From: Christensenellales bacterium
GTDB lineage: Bacteria; Bacillota; Clostridia; Christensenellales; CAG-138
Assembly (NCBI GenBank): GCA_045114775.1
Contig: JBGULC010000028.1
Coordinates: 20,483 to 84,482 of the forward strand
Direction: 5' to 3'
Length of the DNA stretch: 64,000 nt
A program made the translations under genes and the position numbers. Every line of letters starts with the position of its first letter. The stretch's first letter is position 1. Under the pieces are notes generated by a model. The model had not been told where the DNA came from and searched no databases. It worked only from the letters and a program-made list of their open reading frames with translations. Shown in pieces: positions 26,692-63,663 of this stretch.

Positions 26692-27630
26692 TTACGGTTC
26701 GGTCAGATCCAGCGCTGCATTGGGGCACATCTGCTGCGCAGCATAGATGCGGGCGGCACAGGCCCAAATCTCATTTCCGGCGTCAGACAAATGAAGATGT
26801 CCTTTTGCGTATTCGGAGCGCAGATAACCGTTTTCATCCATCAACTCCCGCGCAAAGGTGAAAAAGCCCAGACCGTATTCCGCGCAGATCCCGCGCAAAA
26901 CGTCGTTGAAACTGTTCCAATGGTCGATGTCCAAATTTCTGTTGTCGCAAAACATTTTCGTGCCCGGATTGACGCCCTCCACGATGATCTCAACGCCGGG
27001 ACAATCCGCTTGGATCCGCTCGATCATTCTGCAGTAATCGGCACGCACCGTATCCCAATCGCGGCAGTATATATCATTTGCGCCAAGCATCAGAAACACC
27101 TTCGTCGCCTCATTGAGGTTGATGCCTTTTGTGAGAGCCACATGACCGCCGCGATAGGAAAACACGGCGTCCTTCGAGCTTGCCTGATAGACAGTCATCG
27201 AGACCTCGCCCATAAACTTTGCGCTGCCGAAAAATCCTTCATCCCGATTGCGCTGCGCCCGTACGTAGTTTCCAAACTCGCGCGTCATGGAATCTCCGAT
27301 AAACAGTGCGCCGTCGAAAAACGAATCGAACTCTCCCGAATCCAGCCTTGCGCGCGTGATAGGCTCAGGTGTCGGCTCTGCCGTCGGTTCCGGCGTCGGC
27401 TCCTCTGTCGGCACAGGTGTCGGTTCCGGCGTCGGCTCCTCTGTCGGCACAGGTGTCGGTTCATCAACCGGCTCGGGTGTCGATGCAGGCTCGGTCGTCG
27501 GGCACGCCGTAGGCACTTTCGTTTCGGTGGGTTTCTGTATTTGCACCGCATCGTCCGCTGTTTCCGGATTACAGCCGTATAGCCCGATCGCCAATAAAGC
27601 AGCTATGATAAAGCAAATGATCCGTTTCAT
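26692..27630 (-). CDS. SGNH/GDSL hydrolase lipoprotein
   Basis: Lipobox LAIGLYGC, Pro/Thr linker, FIGDSMT (block I Ser) and a C-terminal GHLHLSDAG (D-x-x-H-like). Start ATG 27630. Confidence 0.7.
   Translation of the reverse strand: MKRIICFIIAALLAIGLYGCNPETADDAVQIQKPTETKVPTACPTTEPASTPEPVDEPTPVPTEEPTPEPTPVPTEEPTPEPTAEPTPEPITRARLDSGEFDSFFDGALFIGDSMTREFGNYVRAQRNRDEGFFGSAKFMGEVSMTVYQASSKDAVFSYRGGHVALTKGINLNEATKVFLMLGANDIYCRDWDTVRADYCRMIERIQADCPGVEIIVEGVNPGTKMFCDNRNLDIDHWNSFNDVLRGICAEYGLGFFTFARELMDENGYLRSEYAKGHLHLSDAGNEIWACAARIYAAQQMCPNAALDLTEP
27386..27457. repeat. perfect 36-bp x2 tandem duplication inside the SGNH linker
   Basis: ggttccggcgtcggctcctctgtcggcacaggtgtc occurs at 27386-27421 and again at 27422-27457. 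It encodes PVPTEEPTPEPT twice. Confidence 0.9.
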
Positions 27631-45037: not shown

Positions 45038-47074
45038 TTAAAGTTTTTTCCGTATCGTCAGGATGTTTTGTCCGAATTTATATGCATAGTCCATGCCGTC
45101 CATGGTCTTCTTCACCAGAAAGATGCCCAACCCGCCGATCGGTCTGTCCTCTGCGGAAAGATGCACATCCGGGTCTTTCTTCTCCAGAGGGTTATAGGGC
45201 ATCCCCTTGTCCAGGAAGGTCAGGGTCGCCGTTTTTGACGCCTGCTCGTATCCGAACCGCACGGTGACGGGACCGGTCCCCGGTGCATAGGCGTACTGGG
45301 AGATGTTCGCCATGATCTCGTCGATCGCCACACCGATCTGCATCTTTGCCTTCGGCGGGCAGTCGACAGCGTCCAGCTCCGCTTCGACGAAATCGGTCAC
45401 CGCAGGGATATTTCCGACCGCGGCTTCCACGGTCAGCGCCTTCACGGACGCAGCGGCCTTCGGTCCCTTATATTCGAGGCAGAGCATGGTGAGATCGTCG
45501 AACTGCTCCGCCTCCTGCACAAAGTCGTCCACCGCCCGGCGTACGCTGCGCAGGATCGCCTCCGGCGCTTCGTCCTTGGCGTCGTTCAACGCGGCGACCA
45601 TCCGCTCGGAACCGAAAAGCTCGTTCTTCGCGTTGCTCGCTTCGGGCACACCGTCCGTATAGACGAAAATCTTTGCTCCCGGCGTCAGTTGAACCTCATA
45701 TTCCCGATACCGGGCGCCGCTCATGCCGCCGATCACAAGACCGTGCTTATCCTTCAACAGGGCAAAGTCTCCGTCCGGCTCCTTGATCACCGGATATTCG
45801 TGTCCCGCGTTTGCCGCCGTGAGCTTGCCGGTGGAGATCTCCAGGATCCCCAGCCACACGGTGACGAACATCTGTTCCTGATTGTTGGAGCAGATCGCCT
45901 CGTTGGTCTTGGTCAAGGTCGCCGCCGGACCGTGTCCCAGCATGGCGCAGCTCTGCAGGATGATCTTGGAAGCCATCATGAACAGCGCCGCCGGCACGCC
46001 CTTTCCGGACACGTCGGCGATGACCAATCCCAGATGGTCCTCGTCGATCAGGAAGAAATCGAAGAAATCGCCGCCCACTTCCTTGGCGGGATCCATGGAA
46101 GCATAGAGCGCGAACTCCGGCCGGTCGGGGAAAGGCGGGAACAGATGCGGCACGAACGCCGCCTGAATGCGGGTCGCGAGAGACAGCTCCGTGCTGATGC
46201 GCTCCCGTTCGGCGGTGATCTGCGTGATATCCGAGATGTAGGTCTCGATCTGCTCCTCCATCGTGTCGATGGACTTTGCCAGCTGCCCGATCTCGTCCTT
46301 GTTGCGGATGACCTCCTGCAGCTTCTGCGCGGACGCCGTATTCTCCCGGGAGAACCGCGCCGCCTCCTCCGTGATCAGATTGACGGGACGCAGCAGCACC
46401 CGATGCAGGTATAAGCTCTGTCCCAGGATCACGAGCAGCACCAGCGTCACGACGGCAAGCGCGATCTTGTTGAGGAAGGTGCTGCGTACGCCGGCGAGGA
46501 TGTCCATCTGCCGCTGCACGCAAAGGATCCCCTTCACGCTGCCGTCAGACCCCAGAAGCCCGATCATGGCGGTGATGTGCGAATCGGTCTCGATGTTGCC
46601 CTTGTCCCGGATCACCAGCTCCCGATCCGCTTCCAGCTCGTAGAGCGCGCGGTATTTTTCCCGATACTCGTCGTTGGTGGTGTCCCGCACGAAGCCGAAA
46701 TCGTACTTGGTATAGGAGCTGTCGTGATCGATCGTTGAGAACAGAAAGGTGATATGCCGATAATCCGACCGGTCGGGCTCGATCACATAGATGAAGGTGG
46801 ACCCGGACGTATTGCACAGGTGGTCCAGCCGATCCCATACCTCCTTGTATGCAGGGGTGACGCCGCCGCTTTGGGCGTATTCGTCTATGTTATCGGCGTC
46901 AACGAGCTCGGCGGCTGTTTGCGCCGTCAGAAAAGCGCCCTCCGCGTACTGATTCAGCAGCGCGTCGGTGAAGGTCCGATAGCCGATGATGCCGACGACC
47001 ACGGAAAACAGCACCAGCAGCAGCACGATGCCGGCTATGCTCTTGACGGTAATGTGTTGTCGCAGCCACTTCAT
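45038..47074 (-). CDS. sensor PP2C (SpoIIE-family) phosphatase fused to a C-terminal RsbW/SpoIIAB-like HATPase domain
   Basis: TM, extracytoplasmic region, TM, then a HAMP-like segment. PP2C core EVGGDFFDFFLIDEDHLGLVIADVSGKGVPAALFM. C-terminal ATPase-like domain (IDEIMANISQYAY...GGLGIFLVKKTMD). The start is uncertain (ATG 47074 or TTG 47113). Confidence 0.8.
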   Translation of the reverse strand: MKWLRQHITVKSIAGIVLLLVLFSVVVGIIGYRTFTDALLNQYAEGAFLTAQTAAELVDADNIDEYAQSGGVTPAYKEVWDRLDHLCNTSGSTFIYVIEPDRSDYRHITFLFSTIDHDSSYTKYDFGFVRDTTNDEYREKYRALYELEADRELVIRDKGNIETDSHITAMIGLLGSDGSVKGILCVQRQMDILAGVRSTFLNKIALAVVTLVLLVILGQSLYLHRVLLRPVNLITEEAARFSRENTASAQKLQEVIRNKDEIGQLAKSIDTMEEQIETYISDITQITAERERISTELSLATRIQAAFVPHLFPPFPDRPEFALYASMDPAKEVGGDFFDFFLIDEDHLGLVIADVSGKGVPAALFMMASKIILQSCAMLGHGPAATLTKTNEAICSNNQEQMFVTVWLGILEISTGKLTAANAGHEYPVIKEPDGDFALLKDKHGLVIGGMSGARYREYEVQLTPGAKIFVYTDGVPEASNAKNELFGSERMVAALNDAKDEAPEAILRSVRRAVDDFVQEAEQFDDLTMLCLEYKGPKAAASVKALTVEAAVGNIPAVTDFVEAELDAVDCPPKAKMQIGVAIDEIMANISQYAYAPGTGPVTVRFGYEQASKTATLTFLDKGMPYNPLEKKDPDVHLSAEDRPIGGLGIFLVKKTMDGMDYAYKFGQNILTIRKKL

Positions 47075-47105
47075 GGAATGCTCTTTTCCCTTTCCCGCGC
47101 AGAGG

Positions 47106-47402
47106 TCATTCAACGGTCAGGATGTCCGAAAAACCGGTGACTTCGAAGATCTCCAGGATCATTTCATTCGCATGGATCACCTTCATGGTCCCCTGCCGGT
47201 TCATCGTCTTCAGCGCCGCAAGCAGCACGCGAAGCCCCGCCGAAGAGATGTAATCGAGCTTCTCGAAATCAAAGGTCAGCTCCTCCACGCCAACGAGCGC
47301 GTCGTTCAGCACCGTCTCCAGTTCCGGCGCGGTCGTCGTGTCCAGTCGCCCTTCGAGGGCGATCGTCAGCGCTTTTTCATTTTTGGTTTGCAGAATCGTC
47401 AT
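47106..47402 (-). CDS. STAS-domain anti-sigma-factor antagonist (SpoIIAA/RsbV-like)
   Basis: 98 aa with the conserved phosphorylatable Ser context DFEKLDYISSAGLRVLL. Confidence 0.85.
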   Translation of the reverse strand: MTILQTKNEKALTIALEGRLDTTTAPELETVLNDALVGVEELTFDFEKLDYISSAGLRVLLAALKTMNRQGTMKVIHANEMILEIFEVTGFSDILTVE

Positions 47403-47516: not shown

Positions 47517-47936
47517 TTACGGTCTGCCGTAATAGAACTCGGTCGCGGTCACGTTTTTCTGGATCAGAACGGAGCTCTGATGAAACGCCGCGATCAGGTC
47601 GTCCGCAGCGGCGTGAACGGCTTCCGCGCTCGTGTCGCTCAGATAGATCACGATCGTGTATTCGCGATAGAGCATCTCTCCGTCTGCCCAGCCGCCGTTC
47701 GCCTCCTGGATCGTCCAGCCGCCGACATGCTTGAGCAGGATCTCCTCCGCTTTCGTTTTGGCTTCGTCCGGCGTGAACACCGGCTCGTTCGTATCCTTAT
47801 CATTCGTACCGAGATACATGACGTACTGCACGTCCCCCGCTGCCTGCTTCGGCAGCAGCGCAACGATCATTCCCGCGACCGACAGGCACAGCGCGACGGC
47901 GGCAAGAACGATTGCAGCGACAGATCTTTTATTCAT
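47517..47936 (-). CDS. membrane-anchored small protein of unknown function
   Basis: MNKRSVAAIVLAAVALCLSVAG TM anchor followed by a ~100-aa domain (YVMYLGTNDKD...GGWTIQEANGGW...YTIVIYL...HQSSVLIQ). It reminds me of a DUF family, but I have not verified this. Start moved to ATG 47936 to avoid overlap. Confidence 0.5.
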   Translation of the reverse strand: MNKRSVAAIVLAAVALCLSVAGMIVALLPKQAAGDVQYVMYLGTNDKDTNEPVFTPDEAKTKAEEILLKHVGGWTIQEANGGWADGEMLYREYTIVIYLSDTSAEAVHAAADDLIAAFHQSSVLIQKNVTATEFYYGRP

Positions 47937-47971: not shown

Positions 47972-48937
47972 TTACATCTGCTGATGCAGCTTGCGGAACT
48001 TCGGGGATTTGGAATCGAGCATTTTGAAGCTCTCCTCCGACGGAATATCGTTCTTGCCGGAGTCGATGTAGTTTCTCAGCACGCCGACCAGCACGAACGG
48101 CTTGATAAAGACCGAGTGGATGATCGCCCACATGATGATCCCGATGAGCGTCGCAAAAGCGATGGGCAGCGTTTGGGGATTTGTGAGGATCTTACCGAGC
48201 CAGTTCGTCGTATCGGTAAGATTTTCCGCCATCCACGCCGCAAGCGGTTCATAGAACGTCTGTCCCTTCAGGATCAGGTAGGCGATAACGCCGAATATGC
48301 CGCCGATCCCGAGCAGAGAAACAAGGCCCATGCCGAACACGCGGCCCATGTTCTTGGCAAACGTCTTGCCGTGCTTGAAGAACAGCACCGCGCCTTCGCA
48401 CGCCGCCTTTGCGGGCTTGACCTCCTTGCGGTAGAAGACCCAGCCGAGGCAGCAGTCGCAAAGGTAATTGACGATCGTCTGCATGGCGGAGCTTACCGCG
48501 CTGCCGACCGCGCCGCCGGTGTCGCCGCCGATGCTTTCACCGAGCTTCGTGACGCCGCGGCCGATCTGGTTGAAGATGCCCCGGATCACGCCGGTGATCG
48601 CGTAGAACGCCGCAACGGTCGCAAAGCGCTCTTTCACGACCTTCTTGCCCTCCTTGATGACGTTGTCGGGCAGTTCGCCTTCGGCAACGCCACGGGTCAT
48701 CATGGCGATCTGTCCCGCTTTCAGCGAATAGGAAATGAACCGCGTGATGAGGATCATCAGAGCGACGCCGATCACCGCGCCGATCAACAAACCGATCGGC
48801 CCGTTCTGCGCGAATTTTTCACCGAGGAAATACCCGAGCGTTCCCGCGCCGAGAAGCAGCGCAACCGAAATGATGTCCCAGAACACGCGGCGCAGAGAGA
48901 AGCCGAGCGTCTTTTTGTAGATTTGTTTGTTGTCCAT
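47972..48937 (-). CDS. polytopic membrane protein of unknown function
   Basis: 321 aa with several predicted TM helices. GGAGG RBS before ATG 48937. No recognisable motif. Confidence 0.55.
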   Translation of the reverse strand: MDNKQIYKKTLGFSLRRVFWDIISVALLLGAGTLGYFLGEKFAQNGPIGLLIGAVIGVALMILITRFISYSLKAGQIAMMTRGVAEGELPDNVIKEGKKVVKERFATVAAFYAITGVIRGIFNQIGRGVTKLGESIGGDTGGAVGSAVSSAMQTIVNYLCDCCLGWVFYRKEVKPAKAACEGAVLFFKHGKTFAKNMGRVFGMGLVSLLGIGGIFGVIAYLILKGQTFYEPLAAWMAENLTDTTNWLGKILTNPQTLPIAFATLIGIIMWAIIHSVFIKPFVLVGVLRNYIDSGKNDIPSEESFKMLDSKSPKFRKLHQQM

Positions 48938-49005: not shown

Positions 49006-50043
49006 TCAGCCCTTCATTGCGTTGAAGAGGATCTTGCGGGATCCGCCCTTATCGTCCGTTGCGCCGCTGCGCGCGAACGCGAGCGCGACGACAAACAGCA
49101 GATCGAGGTTCTTCTCGCTCGTGAAGATGCGGTAGAAGCCCGGAACCGGGACCTTGTTCGCGACCGCATGCTCCTCCGCGTCCTCCTCATGGACGTACTG
49201 ACTCGAGGCCTCGATATAGCCGATCTCCGCGCCGTCTCTCGAAACCGTGTAGGACGGGAACAGAACCTTGCCCTGCGCAAAGCGGGATTCCACCTTGACG
49301 CCGTTCTTTTTGAGGTGCTTCCAGATGTCCTCGCCGTCCAGCGAGAAGGTGTAGTGGTTGTCGAGCAGGAAGGAATCCCAGTCGGTCTCCTCCTGGTGCC
49401 CGACAAGATGCGCCTTGGTCGTGCCGTGCTCGTGGTCGATGAAGTCGAAGCCGAACGGACCCGCCAGCGTGAACTTCGTCATCTTTGCTTCGTAGAGAAC
49501 CTTGCGGTCCTTGTCCTCGATGCGGTGCCCGTACTTCGGCGTGCCGAGATCGGTCAAGAAGTACAGCTCTCGCTGTTCGCCCTGCTCGGACGGCGCATAG
49601 ACGGTCTCGCCCTGTGTTTCCTTGAGCTTTTTGACGTCGATCTTCTTTTTGACCGTGAGTCCGACCACTAAAAGCAGGATGACCGCGCCCGCGATCATAA
49701 GATAGATGCCGAAGCCCTTAGAGGACGTGATCTTTGCGGGATTCTGCGGATCGTACTGGATTTTGATGGTCTTGCCCACCTCGTAGGAGGGGCTGTCGGA
49801 ATCGAGCTGCGTCGTGTATTCCTTGCCGCCGACCGTATACTTCACGGTCACGATCCGTCTGACGTCGTTTGCGGTGCCCGGATCGGGAATGTAATCGGGG
49901 TCGTTTTCGATGGAAACGATGGTTGCTTCCGCCTTTTCATAGCCCTTCGACCGGAAGAACGTGAAATAGACGCCGACGCCGAGCGCGATTGCGGCAAGAA
50001 TCGCCGCGAAGATTTTCAAACCGGGTCCTTTGAATGAGAACAC
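49006..50043 (-). CDS. DUF3592-like TM-sandwich-TM module fused to a LURP-one/Tubby-C-like domain
   Basis: GTG start behind AGGAGG. The N-terminal part is TM, then VTVKYTVGGKEYTTQLDSDSPSYEVGKTIKIQYDPQNP, then TM. The C-terminal ~200 aa end with FYRIFTSEKNLDLLFVVALAFA, a buried-helix pattern I remember from LOR/scramblase-like folds. Confidence 0.55.
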   Translation of the reverse strand: MFSFKGPGLKIFAAILAAIALGVGVYFTFFRSKGYEKAEATIVSIENDPDYIPDPGTANDVRRIVTVKYTVGGKEYTTQLDSDSPSYEVGKTIKIQYDPQNPAKITSSKGFGIYLMIAGAVILLLVVGLTVKKKIDVKKLKETQGETVYAPSEQGEQRELYFLTDLGTPKYGHRIEDKDRKVLYEAKMTKFTLAGPFGFDFIDHEHGTTKAHLVGHQEETDWDSFLLDNHYTFSLDGEDIWKHLKKNGVKVESRFAQGKVLFPSYTVSRDGAEIGYIEASSQYVHEEDAEEHAVANKVPVPGFYRIFTSEKNLDLLFVVALAFARSGATDDKGGSRKILFNAMKG

Positions 50044-50120
50044 TGTTATTTCCTCCTGTTAATTGGATTGTTTCCTTGCTGCCGTCAATCAGGCCTCACA
50101 GAATTTGTTTTCAACATTTC

Positions 50121-50154
50121 AGTATAGCAAAGCATGTCCAAAGGATGTCCAAAG
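50121..50154 (-). promoter_or_regulatory. 11-bp-phased direct repeats abutting a -10 box (candidate response-regulator-activated promoter)
   Basis: The minus strand reads CTTTGGACATC CTTTGGACATG CTTTGCTATACT, i.e. two perfect TTTGGACAT repeats (50144-50154 and 50133-50143). A third CTTTG phase runs into TATACT (50121-50126). No -35 hexamer is present. Confidence 0.4.
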
Positions 50155-50215
50155 AAACAGCCGCTTTTCTCAAAAAACTTGAAAAAAGCGGATTCCGTCT
50201 CTGAATTATATCAGT

Positions 50216-51016
50216 TTAGTTTTTATTATCTATTTCGGAAAGGATGCTTTCCGTCAAGCTCGCCCAGGTATAGGTGCTCATATATTCTCCCCGGTACGCG
50301 TTGATCGCCTCGCTGTCGCCCGCATGGAACCGGTATGCATCGCAGGTGAGCGTCTCCGGTCTGACGCGGAGAATCCCTTTGCTCATTTCCATGATCTCCT
50401 CAGCGCCGTACTCCCGCAAGGTATCCCGCAAAGAACGGATGTAGGTATCAAGCTGCTTCTGCATGCCGCGATCGTACGGGCGATCCTCCCATATCGCGGC
50501 AAAGAGCTCCGCCCGCGTGACACCGGAACCTTGCCGGTCTACCAGATATGCCAGAATCTCCTTGCTTTTCGCCAGTTTGAAATGCATGATCCGGTCCTTC
50601 ACAAACACATCGAAGGAACCGAAGGTCTTGATCCGTATCTGTTCGGATGTCTCGGACCGTTTCCCCTCGCACAGATAACGCACCTCCGCCGCGAGTTTTT
50701 CTAAAGACACCGGCTTCAAAAGATACCCCGTCGGATGCACTGCATACGCGTCGAAAGCATATTCTTTGTACGCGGTCAGGAACAAAATCGCCGTTTGCGG
50801 ATGCAGCTTTTTGATCCGCGCGGCAAGCGTGATGCCGTCGATTTCCGGCATATTGATATCGAGGAGGACAAGGTTGACAACATGCTCTGAAAGCCAATTC
50901 AGCGCATCCTGCGCCCTTGTAAATCCCCGGATCTCGTCGATCTCCGGCAGGCTTTCGCATTGATGTACCGTATATTCGACCGCCAGCGGCTCGTCGTCGA
51001 TACAGATCGCTTTCAC
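50216..51016 (-). CDS. response regulator: receiver + SARP/OmpR-type winged helix with the start of a BTAD-like region
   Basis: GTG start 51016 (GTGA overlap with the kinase stop, AAGGAGAG RBS). Receiver LVLLDINMPEIDG. DNA-binding part IRIKTFGSFDVFVKDRIMHFKLAKSKEILAYLVDRQG...AAIWEDRP...YIRSLRDTL. Confidence 0.8.
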   Translation of the reverse strand: MKAICIDDEPLAVEYTVHQCESLPEIDEIRGFTRAQDALNWLSEHVVNLVLLDINMPEIDGITLAARIKKLHPQTAILFLTAYKEYAFDAYAVHPTGYLLKPVSLEKLAAEVRYLCEGKRSETSEQIRIKTFGSFDVFVKDRIMHFKLAKSKEILAYLVDRQGSGVTRAELFAAIWEDRPYDRGMQKQLDTYIRSLRDTLREYGAEEIMEMSKGILRVRPETLTCDAYRFHAGDSEAINAYRGEYMSTYTWASLTESILSEIDNKN

Positions 51017-52287
51017 GGTTTTCTCTCCTTTCCTTTCCCCGCTGCATCCGGGATGAACAGTGTGACGTCGGTGCCTTTTCCGATCTCGCTTCTTAGAATC
51101 ATTGTGCCGCCGCACATCTGCTCAATGCGTTCTCTGACATTTTGAATCCCGATATGTGCTTCTCCGTCGGGCCGCTCTTTGACCGGATCAAAACCGACCC
51201 CGTTGTCCTCAATCGTGATCCGGTGTCCGCCCGTCTCATGCGCGGTAGAAACTGTCACGCGTCCCTCCCTGCAGCTTCGGACCCCGTGCCGGATCGCGTT
51301 CTCCACGAGCGGCTGGATCGTCAAAGCAGGAATCGAAAACGCATCGTCCTCGATCCGATACTCCACACGGATCTGCGGAAAGCGGAGCGCTTCGATCTCC
51401 GCATACAGCCGCGTATGCTCCAGCTCCTTCTTGATCGGGATCAGATCGGTCCGGTCAAGCGTTTCCAGATTCTGCCGGAGGTATGTGCTGAAATCCTCCA
51501 GGATGCGGTCTCCCATGGGCGGGTCCTTTGCGTACAGCGCGCGGATGGTGTTGAGCGCGTTGAACAGAAAGTGCGGCTGGACCTGCGTCATCATGATTTG
51601 AATGCGCTGCGTTGCCATGAGGTCGCGTTCATGCGCACGGACGAACTGCAGATGCAGCCAAATATAATAGAAGACGGTGCTGATCACGATGCCGACGGTC
51701 AAAAACGTGACCGGAGAACGGAGATCTGTTGCGAATACGGAATCCATCAGAACACAGGCAATGATCAGCAGTGCGTTCAGCAGCGGGATCCACATTTCCG
51801 CTTTTTTGATCCGACGAAACGCGCGGACCGTGATCCAAAGCAGGCAGAACAGCAAAACGCCGCTGACGACGTGACAGCTGTAGCCCAGCGGTCCGCGAAG
51901 GAAGTGGTTGGTTTCATCAATGGAAAAGCTGACGCCGGAAAACAGCGCCGTAGAATAGATCAGCGCATTGGCGCCGACCAGCGTCCAGAAAGGCCAGATC
52001 CTGCGCTTTGTGCCGAACAGGTACATAAACAGCACAAGGACTGCCGGACGAACGGAATACCCGTAGATCCCGAGGATCGTCCTCGCCACGCGCTGCGTGC
52101 TGTCCTGCTCCACCCAAAAATCGAGGACATTCTGCGCAACAAGCGTCACGACCAACGCGGCGATGATCAGCATGACCCGTCGATACTCCCGACGGATATA
52201 CGGGTCGATCACGACCGTGATCGACAGCCCGAGCAGAAGCAGCAGCAGCGGCACAATCGCAACAAGCGTATCATAATTGACGGTCAT
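51013..52287 (-). CDS. LytS/YehU-type sensor histidine kinase (His_kinase + HATPase)
   Basis: About 6 N-terminal TM helices, H-region MTQVQPHFLFNALNTIRALY, ATPase region ENAIRHG...ITIEDNGVGF. Confidence 0.85.
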   Translation of the reverse strand: MTVNYDTLVAIVPLLLLLLGLSITVVIDPYIRREYRRVMLIIAALVVTLVAQNVLDFWVEQDSTQRVARTILGIYGYSVRPAVLVLFMYLFGTKRRIWPFWTLVGANALIYSTALFSGVSFSIDETNHFLRGPLGYSCHVVSGVLLFCLLWITVRAFRRIKKAEMWIPLLNALLIIACVLMDSVFATDLRSPVTFLTVGIVISTVFYYIWLHLQFVRAHERDLMATQRIQIMMTQVQPHFLFNALNTIRALYAKDPPMGDRILEDFSTYLRQNLETLDRTDLIPIKKELEHTRLYAEIEALRFPQIRVEYRIEDDAFSIPALTIQPLVENAIRHGVRSCREGRVTVSTAHETGGHRITIEDNGVGFDPVKERPDGEAHIGIQNVRERIEQMCGGTMILRSEIGKGTDVTLFIPDAAGKGKERKP

Positions 52288-52363: not shown

Positions 52364-52392
52364 ATAGTATCAGAAAACAGAAAGATTATCAA
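52364..52392 (-). promoter_or_regulatory. candidate promoter of the kinase-regulator operon
   Basis: Minus strand: TTGATA (52387-52392), 17 nt, TACTAT (52364-52369). Confidence 0.4.
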
Positions 52393-60171: not shown

Positions 60172-60188
60172 CGATCCAATGCTGCTTC

Positions 60189-60254
60189 TTATTTGAAGTA
60201 TCTCTCCAGGAGACCCTTCAGCGCCTTGCCGTGTCTTGCCTCGTCGCGCGCCAT
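60189..60254 (-). pseudogene. displaced native 3' end of the rubrerythrin gene (attL-side repeat)
   Basis: The minus strand translates to [21 protein letters not shown], identical to the C-terminus of 63118..63663. Homology stops exactly at the Met codon (upstream reads ...RSNQ). Confidence 0.75.
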
Positions 60255-60446
60255 TTGATTGCTTCGCACTGCTTGCAATCAAGGGGGGATGCTTCAAAAC
60301 GCGAACAGCACAACAAAGGACTTCCTTGATATAAGTTTAGCACATCTCCAAACAAATGTCCACATCTCTTGGACAACTTATGTTCAAGAAATCTCATCTT
60401 TGTTACAATAAAAGCCACACTTTGGACAACAAAGGAGGTTTTTTCT

Positions 60447-61661
60447 ATGGCAAACAACAAAGATTCTGGCATTTTCAAGCTGGAAAATGGAAACTGGGGA
60501 TTTCGGTTCGTCATAACAGTAGATGGTAAAAAGATTAGCAGCCGAAAATCCACCGATGAGTTTGGAAACAAACTCAAAACTAAGAAGCAAGCAGTCAAGG
60601 CAAGGGAAAAGGCGATTGCAGAAGCGCGGATTGAGCGTGAGCGTCAGCACAAAATTTCCAGAAGGACAGTCGAAGAAGTCTATGACGAATACTGTGAAAA
60701 GGGACGCGCGGGGCGTGCCTACATGACGATCCGCAAACAGGATTGTATGTGGAGGAATCACATCAAGGCGTCCTTCGGCAAGCGCTTCATTGATGAAATC
60801 AACGTTGCTGAAATCAATGATTATCTTGCAGAAAAATACTACAAGGATGGGTATTCTTTCCGCTATACCGAAAGCTTCCTCAAAATGTTTTATCTGATCT
60901 TCGGGCAAGCGTATTCCAGGGACTATCTGGACGTGGACAGCTACAACAAGCTTTGCTTGAACAAGAACACAAAAATCCACATGCCGAAGCTGAAAGCCGA
61001 TGATGATACCGATATTGTGGCTTTCACACGCGAAGAAATGCGGATTCTAGATGCGTATTTCAAAGGCACCAATGCCGAAACCGCTTACCTCCTGGGAATG
61101 TATTGCGGCTTACGCATCAATGAGGCATTTGGGCTGAAATGGGATCATGTGGACTTAGAAGCTGGAACCATTCTGATTGATCGCCAACAACAGTATCAAG
61201 ACAGCCTCATCAAGCTCGTTCCTGTGAAAACGCGCAACGGCAACCGCACAGTTTACCTGAGCGACAGAATGAAAGCGTACTTTCAAGAATTGGCGTCTCG
61301 ACGGGCGGATTTCGCGGTCAAGTACAAAGCAGTGCGCGAACAGAAGCAGCGTTTCATTGAGGATTTAGATGGCAAGAAGATTTCTTCCACTGAATTGGTG
61401 AATTGTCTCCCCGACGGTACGATCCAGACAGTGAACAGCATGAAGTACCCCACCAGGCACATCAAAGAAACGCTGGGGATTGATTTCAAGTATCACTATC
61501 TGCGCCACACCTTCGGAACGCGCATGGCAGAATTGAACACCCCTGAACACTTGTTATTGGCGCAAATGGGGCATGGCAATATTCATGTGACACAACTCTA
61601 TTATCTTGCGGTCACGAAAACAGGCGTGGATGTGCTGCAAGAGAATTTGAACAAGCTATAA
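60447..61661 (+). CDS. int: tyrosine-type site-specific integrase with an N-terminal AP2-like arm-binding domain
   Basis: N-terminus GIFKLENGNWGFRFVITVDGKKISSRKSTDEFGNKLKTKKQA. Box I GLRINEAFGLKWDHVD. HYLRHTFGTRMA. GHGNIHVTQLYY (Tyr nucleophile). Start ATG 60447 behind AAAGGAGG. Confidence 0.9.
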   Translation: MANNKDSGIFKLENGNWGFRFVITVDGKKISSRKSTDEFGNKLKTKKQAVKAREKAIAEARIERERQHKISRRTVEEVYDEYCEKGRAGRAYMTIRKQDCMWRNHIKASFGKRFIDEINVAEINDYLAEKYYKDGYSFRYTESFLKMFYLIFGQAYSRDYLDVDSYNKLCLNKNTKIHMPKLKADDDTDIVAFTREEMRILDAYFKGTNAETAYLLGMYCGLRINEAFGLKWDHVDLEAGTILIDRQQQYQDSLIKLVPVKTRNGNRTVYLSDRMKAYFQELASRRADFAVKYKAVREQKQRFIEDLDGKKISSTELVNCLPDGTIQTVNSMKYPTRHIKETLGIDFKYHYLRHTFGTRMAELNTPEHLLLAQMGHGNIHVTQLYYLAVTKTGVDVLQENLNKL

Positions 61662-61669
61662 TGCAGAAA

Positions 61670-61723
61670 CCCCCGAAAGGTTTTCCCTCCATCCTTTTTC
61701 TTATGTGGAAAACCTTTCGGGGG
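61670..61723. terminator. bidirectional terminator between convergent int and WYL genes
   Basis: Perfect 17-bp stem CCCCCGAAAGGTTTTCC (61670-61686) / GGAAAACCTTTCGGGGG (61707-61723). Confidence 0.7.
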
Positions 61724-61738
61724 ACGCGCGGCGCAAGG

Positions 61739-62575
61739 TCAATACATTTCTCGAATTCTATCCATGTACGCTGTAAAATCATCTACTACCGATTGCGGCG
61801 AAATAATCTTGGCACGTCTGCCGAAGCCCAGGAGCCATCCAAAGAATTGATCGCTGATTTCCACGTCTGTCCACAGAAGGAAATGGTTTTCATCGTCTTT
61901 GGTGTAATCTGTACCGCCACCAGTACCGAAACGCTCTATGACCGCATCCAGCAGCGGATTGATGAAGCGGATCGTGACGCGCTCATGCCGCCCTTCAAAC
62001 ATGGAGAAGGTGCGTTTGGTGAATTCTTTGATGTTTAGCGCGGCGTATTCATCTTTACCATCGCGCGGCTTATCGTCCAGAATATTCACTTCGCGCATAC
62101 GATCCACGCGGTATGTCCGCATTTGTTGGCTCTTGTCATCGAACGCCAACAGATAATAGTTTCCATCATTCATCAAAAGCTTGTAAGGGCTTACGATATA
62201 TTCTGCACCCTTGCGGCGATCCACTTGCTTCTTTACATCATTGATGGTGTATTTCTGGTATTTGAAGCTGATCTTCGATGGCTCGCGCTTGACCCCTCCA
62301 ACCTCTTTCTGCATTGCGCTGTTGATTGTGCTTACATTGTTGAAGGTGTATTTGTTATCAGTCTTGCGGCGATCCACCATCTCCACATCATGCCTGATTT
62401 CCTGAGCTTGATGTTCGCTGACAAAGCCGCAAAGCAAATCAACAAAGGTTTTCGCCTGTTTCTCTGTCAGGAATTTCGTGGCATAAATCGCCTCTGCCGC
62501 AAGCTTGATCTCATCTGGCTCATAGCGGTGTTCTTTCACATAAAAGCCCTTTTCTTGGCTGCATTGATGTAACAA
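61739..62575 (-). CDS. WYL-domain transcriptional regulator, N-terminally truncated or frameshifted
   Basis: WYL core GNYYLLAFDDKSQQMRTYRVDRMREVNIL. The ORF opens at a TTG with an in-frame stop 10 codons upstream. A 48-codon ORF (62536..62682) with its own RBS covers the missing N-terminus in another frame. Confidence 0.7.
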   Translation of the reverse strand: MLHQCSQEKGFYVKEHRYEPDEIKLAAEAIYATKFLTEKQAKTFVDLLCGFVSEHQAQEIRHDVEMVDRRKTDNKYTFNNVSTINSAMQKEVGGVKREPSKISFKYQKYTINDVKKQVDRRKGAEYIVSPYKLLMNDGNYYLLAFDDKSQQMRTYRVDRMREVNILDDKPRDGKDEYAALNIKEFTKRTFSMFEGRHERVTIRFINPLLDAVIERFGTGGGTDYTKDDENHFLLWTDVEISDQFFGWLLGFGRRAKIISPQSVVDDFTAYMDRIREMY

Positions 62576-63056
62576 GTATTCTGCTCGAAGGAGGCGATTA
62601 CTTTACTGGCAATTTCTTTAGCCTTGTTTGCGCTTCTGTTGCTGGTGAAACTGAGTTCCATTTTGTTATTGAAGATTTCCATTTTCTTTCCTTTCTCTGA
62701 GGGTTTGATTTTTTATTTCCCTCATCTCTTTTGTGATTACAGTATAACATGTGGGGGCAATGAACCTCTGATTATAATCGTACAGGTTCACGTTTTTGTA
62801 ATTTGTTTTTCTGAAAGTGTATCTTCAAAAGAATGAAACATATAAAATGATGTCTCTGTGGTGTAAAAAGCTGTTTAGTTTTGAATTTCTGATGTGCTTT
62901 TTTGCTTTAAGATGTTGCGTTTTTGTTCGATAAATGCTATGATTTTGCTTGCCAAAGTTTGGACAACTTTTCGATGGACAATTTTGAGGGATTTTGACTG
63001 GTTTCGAAAAGGGTATGGACAACTTTTGGACAATGTGTTTTCTTGTATCAAGGCGC

Positions 63057-63090
63057 AAAAAAGAGAGACAGCGCATCCGCTGTCCCTCTC
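63057..63090 (-). terminator. element-borne terminator now serving the rubrerythrin gene
   Basis: Minus strand: GAGAGGGACAGCG-GATG-CGCTGTCTCTC followed by TTTTTTG, 28 nt after the rbr stop. Confidence 0.6.
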
Positions 63091-63117
63091 AAAAATCCCT
63101 ATTTCAGGGTGTTTTGC

Positions 63118-63183
63118 TTATTTGAAATACCTCTCCAGAAGGCCCTTCAGCGCCTTGCCATGTCTTGCTTCGTCGCGCGCCAT
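63118..63183 (-). repeat. attR-side repeat, the element-supplied recoded 3' end of rbr
   Basis: It differs from 60189-60254 at six positions, all synonymous third-codon positions. Four of the six are A/T here, against two in the left copy. Confidence 0.8.
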
Positions 63184-63663
63184 CTCGTGGACGGTGTCGT
63201 GGATCGCGTCAAGACCGAGCTCCTTTGCACGCTTTGCGAGGTCCGTCTTGCCCGCGGTCGCGCCGTATTCGGCTTCCACGCGCATTTCGAGGTTCTTCTT
63301 GGTGCTGTCGGTCACGACTTCGCCGAGGAGCTCGGCAAACTTTGCCGCATGCTCGGCTTCTTCAAACGCGGCCTTTTCCCAATAGAGACCGATCTCCGGA
63401 TAGCCCTCGCGGTGCGCAACTCGCGCCATGGCAAGATACATGCCGACTTCGGTGCATTCGCCCTGGAAATTGGCGCGCAGATCGTTGAGGATATCCTCGC
63501 GGACGCCCTTCGCAACGCCGACGACGTGCTCCGCCGCCCAGACCATTTCTTCCTTCACCTCGTTGAACTTCGACGCGGGCTGCTTGCAGACCGGGCAGAA
63601 CTCCGGCGGAGTCGCGCCTTCATGAACGTAACCGCAAACGCTGCAAATCCACTTCTTGATCAT
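63118..63663 (-). CDS. rbr: rubrerythrin with an N-terminal rubredoxin-like domain (reverse rubrerythrin arrangement)
   Basis: [10 protein letters not shown]...FCPVCKQP (two CxxC motifs), then a ferritin-like diiron domain with EEAEH and DEARH ExxH motifs. Confidence 0.9.

Follow-up and report, generated by a model that had tools for sequence, protein, structure and literature searches.

Phased direct repeats at the −35 position as the putative DNA site of an upstream-encoded response regulator in rumen and gut Clostridia

Regulators of the OmpR/PhoB family bind head-to-tail on direct repeats that are phased at 11 bp and replace the −35 element, and they activate transcription via sigma region 4. 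The box geometry of the PhoB-type regulators is similar to that of the SARPs. For the latter the rule is that the repeats lie 11 or 22 bp apart and that the 3' repeat is placed 8 bp from the −10 (PMC10936776). The afs box covers −19 to −40 and is occupied by two protomers which sit side by side and contact sigma region 4 (PMC10936776). We analysed a 64-kb stretch of DNA (the window) in which a box of similar layout is found on the minus strand, between the terminator hairpin of a regulator gene and the GTG start at 50043. The features around it are as follows, in the order of transcription.

52364-52392, minus strand: promoter-like site of the sigma-A type (TTGATA-17-TGnTACTAT) upstream of the kinase-regulator operon; ordinary, without a repeat box
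51013-52287, minus strand: sensor histidine kinase, about six predicted membrane helices followed by a His_kinase domain (PF06580, LytS/BtsS class) and HATPase_c
50216-51016, minus strand: response regulator of 266 aa with a LytR/BtsR-lineage receiver, an OmpR-type winged helix (PF00486) and a conserved C-terminal tail of about 50 aa
50161-50191, minus strand: intrinsic-terminator hairpin of the kinase-regulator operon, the T run of which (50160-50151) extends into the upstream repeat
50146-50156, minus strand: upstream 11-nt repeat unit TTCTTTGGACA, at about −42 to −32 if the −10 hexamer is set at −12 to −7
50135-50145, minus strand: downstream 11-nt repeat unit TCCTTTGGACA, at about −31 to −21
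50127-50134, minus strand: 8-nt spacer TGCTTTGC, read as a third CTTTG phase by the first-pass annotation; contains TG at 50129-50128
50121-50126, minus strand: −10 hexamer TATACT, with a predicted transcription start at about 50113-50117
49006-50043, minus strand: DUF3592 gene for a 345-aa membrane protein, with a GTG start and AGGAGG at 50052-50057, 8 nt 5' of the GTG
47972-48937, minus strand: membrane protein of 321 aa without a family match; syntenic with the DUF3592 gene in all close relatives
47517-47936, minus strand: DUF3574 protein with a signal peptide; syntenic in several relatives

The minus strand from 50154 to 50121 reads CTTTGGACATC CTTTGGACATG CTTTGCTATACT, exactly as the first-pass annotation had given it, and the two phased TTTGGACA repeats 11 bp apart are real. 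The terminator, the regulator gene, the kinase gene and the GTG were also found in the places claimed for them. Exact copies of TTTGGACAT lie at 50145-50153 and 50134-50142, and the only third exact copy in the window is at 26927. The identical stretch is in fact the 10-mer CTTTGGACAT, repeated at 11 bp. This box was the only exact repeat of at least 9 nt with an 11-bp period in the 64-kb window. Block shuffles yielded a mean of 0.3 such repeats per 64-kb window and at least one in 20% of the shuffles. By itself the repeat is only mildly unlikely by chance; what makes it significant is where it lies and that it is conserved.

It had been claimed that the promoter has no −35 hexamer. This holds for spacers of 16-18 nt, where the hexamers match TTGACA in only 0-1 of 6 positions and no usable −35 is present; the family consensus at this position is GACATY. 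On the other hand, TGGACA at 50151-50146, inside the upstream repeat, matches TTGACA in 5 of 6 positions, but at a spacer of 19 nt. The box promoter was not called by a consensus promoter scan. An element that had been overlooked is TGcTATACT at 50129-50121, an extended −10. Downstream of it the predicted 5' leader of the DUF3592 gene (50044-50120, minus strand) shows conserved blocks in close relatives, with GAAAYGTTGAA just 3' of the −10 and GACGGCnGC 5' of the ribosome-binding site. The terminator stem upstream is preserved through compensatory changes in the orthologues. Another promoter-like site, TAGATA-16-TGnTATAAT (50232-50205, minus strand; 10 of 12 positions matched), runs across the stop of the regulator gene. 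We treated it as chance because it is not conserved in the orthologues and lies upstream of the terminator in an A+T-rich stretch.

The kinase gene overlaps the start of the regulator gene by 4 nt. Close relatives share the gene order kinase, regulator, box, DUF3592 gene and 321-aa membrane protein, often followed by the DUF3574 gene, and we detected no convincing terminator between the last three genes in the window. Because of the kept order and the lack of a convincing terminator between them we took these genes as one regulated operon: the gene for the 321-aa protein is probably co-transcribed with the DUF3592 gene, and the DUF3574 gene possibly belongs to the same operon. Orthologues of the DUF3592 gene carry ATG or GTG at the same position, and the C-terminal part of its product has no match to a Pfam family. 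There was no sign of autoregulation in the window, where the kinase operon has an ordinary −35 and −10 and no box; some relatives carry the box upstream of, or divergent from, the kinase gene.

We then followed the box through the relatives. The regulator has 1937 homologues at E ≤ 1e-10. Taking one genome per species, we sampled 80 loci via the regulator protein (48-89% identity), all of them from rumen or gut Clostridia assemblies and together representing about 75 genomes. In 59 of the 80 loci a phased repeat occurred within about 160 nt 3' of the regulator stop, right after the terminator. In about 10 further loci the repeat was found elsewhere, i.e. after an inserted downstream gene, divergent from the kinase gene, or upstream of the kinase gene on the same strand. 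A repeat search that did not require a −10, with near-identical promoters collapsed, gave 69 non-redundant repeats. TAnnnT followed exactly 8 nt after TTTGGACA in 58 of these, and no other offset was seen in more than 11. Among the 11 exceptions four belong to the TTGGATGGAT class in another register and seven are false positives in coding sequence.

The common design of the 58 promoters consists of two 11-nt units TYCTTTGGACA, exactly 8 nt, and TAnnnT. In the matrix built from them TGGA is invariant in both units and the T, A and T of the −10 hexamer are likewise invariant. The length of the 8-nt spacer does not change across the family, while its sequence is variable except for the TG: positions −20 to −16 are nearly free of information, and only T at −15 (41 of 58) and G at −14 (43 of 58) are enriched, occurring together in 35 promoters. 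The repeats are therefore conserved in orthologous and paralogous loci, with 58 non-redundant promoters of fixed geometry, although many of the loci are kin by descent and the 58 promoters are not 58 independent events. In close orthologues 80% of the whole intergenic region is conserved, which makes short-range footprinting weak. Conservation also corrects the first-pass annotation on one point. The third CTTTG phase is not a repeat; it is kept in the close DUF3592 clade only, and what remains of it across the family is the TG of the extended −10.

Individual loci depart from this pattern. In L004 (4795-5700) the regulator is 88% and the kinase 89% identical, yet no box or cargo adjoins them and a convergent PP2C-like gene abuts the terminator. 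L134 (9289-9590) and L138 retain only a remnant of the regulator (residues 200-265), with the terminator, the box and the −10 intact, and we read them as boxes retained after their own regulator was lost. In both, the genes 3' of the intact box encode a lipoprotein and a protein homologous to the 321-aa membrane protein of the window.

A further set of phased repeats in the window lies in an integrated element. The element of 2.9 kb (60188-63183) is bounded by 67-nt direct repeats (60188-60254 and 63117-63183; 91% identical), encodes a tyrosine integrase (60369-61661, plus strand) and a WYL/WCX regulator (61739-62575, minus strand), and has integrated at the 3' end of a rubrerythrin gene (63118-63663, minus strand). 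Phased TGGACA(A/T) repeats at 60344-60429 and 62958-63033 were considered as regulator sites and rejected, as they lack TAnnnT 8 nt downstream and lie near both ends of the integrase element. They are probably arm-type sites of the integrase.

Several lines of evidence tie the box to the regulator next to it. The unit of regulator, terminator, box and −10 stays constant while the downstream gene differs: 3' of the box we observed genes for DUF3592 proteins, a 95-aa family, radical SAM/SPASM enzymes, STAS antagonists, SH3, TPR and DUF218 proteins, an ECF sigma factor and an ABC ATPase. Where the systems have diverged, the two repeat copies differ from the consensus in the same way, and the variants that we encountered were CTTTGGACA, ATTGGACA, GTTGGACA, GTTGGAAG, GTTGGA(C/A), GATGGAC, GATGGAT and TTGGATGGAT. 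The classes of the box go together with residues of the winged helix. FKLAK and QKQLDVYIR were found with the CTTTGGACA class, FKMAKCKE with the ATTGGACA class, FKRSK and QKYLDAIIR with the GATGGA class, and FRRAK and QKYLDV(I/V)IR with the TTGGATGGAT class. The box classes correspond to clades and amount to about 4-5 independent concerted changes. A concerted change of both half-sites is nevertheless hard to explain without a dimeric reader.

We also approached the linkage from the opposite side and scanned metagenome contigs for the motif first. This gave 70 matches, and the 56 with 300 nt or more of sequence upstream could be evaluated. Of these, 42 (75%) had the end of a regulator homologue 47-230 nt upstream in the same orientation. 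The other 14 boxes preceded other genes or stood divergent from a kinase gene, and these regulator-less boxes fit the pattern expected of extra members of a regulon. In some genomes the kinase-regulator cassette is present as two or more paralogues (L005 and L007 in assembly RGIG6889; also L045/L053 and L052/L056). L005 and L007 have an identical box sequence and different cargo; the identity of the box points to possible cross-regulation between the two systems at the DNA level.

The regulator combines domains of two lineages. Its receiver (PF00072, E = 6.6e-22) occupies residues 1-115 and is followed by the winged helix. The acceptor Asp is present in it, and D7, D8, D53, T81 and K101 are invariant in 14 homologues. 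As all residues for phospho-transfer are kept, the activity of the regulator should depend on phosphorylation by the kinase. The best NCBIfam matches of the receiver are BtsR (3e-20) and LytR (1e-18), and its best sequence matches in the PDB are 6m8o, which we take to be the S. aureus LytR receiver, and 2qv0. The kinase matches PF06580 with E = 2.7e-19, PF00512 (HisKA) not being its domain. The first-pass annotation had found this kinase class odd for a winged-helix regulator. The LytS-class assignment was borne out, and the mismatch is explained by a receiver of the LytR/BtsR lineage; going by these profile matches, kinase and receiver are of one lineage and the DNA-binding domain alone is of another type.

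That domain is an OmpR-type winged helix, as had been claimed: PF00486 scored 35.4 bits against a cutoff of 26.2 and was detected in 25 of 25 members. PF00072 and PF00486 were the only domains detected in the regulator, and a search for LytTR (PF04397) gave no match. The description of the regulator as 'SARP-like' fits the geometry of the promoter but not the protein. None of 25 members matched the BTA domain (PF03704), even with E values up to 10 allowed, and the profile of the output domain matched the effector domains of the OmpR family best (ArlR, 1.5e-4), with EmbR only weakly (0.05, query positions 7-114). Judged by its defining domain the regulator is not a SARP, though the promoter geometry is like that of a SARP or PhoB. 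In place of the BTA domain essentially all members carry a conserved tail of about 50 aa (CDxYxF...YRGEYM..Y.WA), and the proteins end a few residues after it. A profile search with the tail only against the PDB retrieved nothing relevant; the tail (CDxYRF...AYRGEYM..Y.WA) may be similar to the beginning of BTA domains. In the full-length AlphaFold model the mean pLDDT is 77.6, with values below 60 in the tail. Its top Foldseek matches (PrrA, DrrB, VanR and PhoP) were only full-length regulators of the OmpR family, so the comparison does not discriminate between OmpR and SARP. The winged helix plus tail unit matches 2073 protein clusters (50% identity), or 1348 when E ≤ 1e-10 is required, and the JGI name of the regulator is 'two-component SAPR family response regulator'.

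Taken together, we consider it likely that the 22-bp box (two units TYCTTTGGACA) is the DNA site of the regulator encoded immediately upstream, which would activate the next gene. This agrees with the central reading of the first-pass annotation, in which direct repeats one helical turn apart at the −35 position are read by the adjacent regulator and drive the downstream gene; the 58 boxes of fixed spacing, the concerted variation and the linkage in 42 of 56 matches all support it. From these computed properties of the box we infer binding by the regulator, and activation rather than repression. The membrane kinase (LytS/BtsS class) would phosphorylate the receiver domain, and two regulator molecules would then bind head-to-tail, one per repeat and on the same face of the helix, over about −42 to −21. 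Because there is no usable −35 at 16-18 nt, RNA polymerase would rely on the bound regulator, probably via sigma region 4, together with the TG-extended −10 (TGcTATACT). The predicted transcription start lies about 72 nt 5' of the GTG of the DUF3592 gene, and the transcript would probably extend over one or two further genes. The upstream terminator would keep transcription of the constitutively promoted kinase-regulator operon from running into the box promoter. According to the box rule, the kinase at 51013-52287 would have the DUF3592 membrane-protein operon of the window as its direct output.

The main rival to activation is repression, as the TG extension could allow initiation that is independent of an activator. 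The adjacent regulator would then cover the −35 and spacer region of an otherwise constitutive extended −10 promoter and occlude the polymerase. Extended −10 promoters can function without a −35, and the window has the TGn extension, as do 35 of 58 relatives. The box also overlaps the footprint of RNA polymerase, and a regulator at −42 to −21 could in principle repress. However, the distance from the box to the −10 is exactly 8 nt in all 58 true sites, in one orientation, whereas an occluder would tolerate variable spacing. Strictly fixed spacing and orientation suggest a stereospecific contact with the polymerase, i.e. activation, and occlusion would require neither. Furthermore, 23 of the 58 sites have neither the TG nor a −35, so they would be very weak unless activated, and the geometry is the same as that of known activators. 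We therefore regard repression as unlikely.

It is also very unlikely that the box is read by another factor, be it an alternative sigma using TGGACA as its −35 or an unlinked transcription factor. The 5 of 6 match of TGGACA to TTGACA at a 19-nt spacer could be taken that way, as could the 14 of 56 evaluable motif-first boxes without a regulator gene directly upstream. A −35 element, though, would not occur as a phased duplicate, and the two copies co-vary even to TTGGATGGAT, where the resemblance to a −35 is lost but the spacing is kept. The class of the box follows the winged-helix sequence of the adjoining regulator, and 75% of the motif-first matches have the regulator gene 47-230 nt upstream. 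A third arrangement, with three protomers on three phased CTTTG units of which the last overlaps the −10, starts from the spacer TGCTTTGC, which provides an in-phase third CTTTG in the window and in close relatives of the DUF3592 clade. We consider it extremely improbable: across the 58 promoters positions −20 to −16 are almost without information, with only T at −15 and G at −14 enriched, and the GGACA core, invariant in both real units, is missing from the third. A final alternative, that the repeat is a product of chance or an inherited sequence without function, could appeal to the roughly 20% of shuffled 64-kb windows in which one 9-mer repeat with an 11-bp period is expected. It is contradicted by the conservation, the invariant spacing, the concerted variation and the gene linkage and has a negligible probability.

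If the box is the site of the adjacent regulator, then its consensus, its fixed position and its class variants provide a rule by which hundreds of orphan two-component systems in rumen and gut Clostridia could have their direct targets read from sequence alone. The commonest putatively box-driven cargo is a family of 94-96 aa with an N-terminal ..QLExVSGG and the core LGVYRPGF...HHY..ARAFL.Q.DWEKF.WIE..GSL. In all 23 genome loci that carry it (e.g. L006:4974-5258 and L021:4971-5258) it lies 3' of the regulator on the same strand; it has no Pfam or NCBIfam match and is absent from the window. We considered the 95-aa cargo as a RiPP precursor with a radical SAM maturase and rejected this, as a radical SAM/SPASM gene follows it directly in L021 only and most loci with more than 3 kb of room downstream contain no such enzyme. 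A broader idea, which we regard as speculative and rather doubtful, is that kinase, regulator, terminator, box and −10 form a portable, self-contained sensor-plus-promoter cassette, recruited time and again in rumen and gut Clostridia to bring unrelated cargo under the control of a single signal, and that the 95-aa cargo is a secreted signal feeding back on the six-helix kinase in a form of peptide quorum sensing. If true, this would be a quorum-sensing circuit of LytS-type kinases and winged-helix regulators, in place of the classical Agr/Com kinases and LytTR regulators.

A few genes 3' of the box the window also encodes, on the minus strand, a STAS anti-sigma antagonist at 47106-47402 and, at 45038-47113, a PP2C phosphatase with an anti-sigma-kinase-like domain fused to it. 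L022, L054, L055 and L140 have a STAS gene as the first gene 3' of the box. These observations together suggest that partner-switching modules may be a recurrent output of the regulator family.

Our literature search returned no paper with the box sequence TYCTTTGGACA and none characterising the regulator family or its DNA site; CD1688, a C. difficile regulator that came up in the search, is unrelated. With the SARPs of Streptomyces (AfsR, ActII-ORF4, DnrI) the locus shares the 11-bp direct repeats, the distance of 8 bp between the 3' repeat and the −10, a box at about −40 to −20 that overlaps or replaces the −35, and an OmpR-type winged helix. The regulator differs from them in having a phospho-receiver and a partner kinase, whereas the winged helix of the SARPs is N-terminal and not under receiver control. 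It also has no BTA domain (25 of 25 members) and the tail of about 50 aa instead, and its host is one of the rumen Clostridia and not an actinomycete. It is mostly through the BTA domain that AfsR contacts sigma region 4 and the alpha CTD. As there is no such domain here, the contact surface must differ.

The OmpR/PhoB family (PhoB with the pho box, B. subtilis PhoP, ArlR) resembles the regulator in the combination of a receiver with PF00486, and the best structural and sequence matches belong to this family. The site agrees as well, with repeats at an 11-bp period and a box at −42 to −21 over the −35 position. Unlike in that family, the partner kinase carries PF06580 (LytS/BtsS) and not HisKA, the receiver matches BtsR and LytR best, and there is an extra conserved tail at the C-terminus. 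Other features are shared with LytSR, BtsSR and AgrCA, which work with LytTR regulators: the PF06580 kinase as in LytS and BtsS, a multi-helix membrane sensor without a large extracellular domain, the lineage of the receiver, and a regulator gene that adjoins the target promoter. The differences from these systems are the winged helix in place of LytTR and the contiguous 11-nt units of the repeat; sites of the AgrA type consist of 9-bp repeats separated by 12-13 bp. The proposed mechanism is a textbook one, and the family member and its motif are new. It presents a clean case of domain swapping, in which a LytS-type kinase and a LytR-type receiver are joined to DNA-binding and promoter logic of the OmpR/SARP type.
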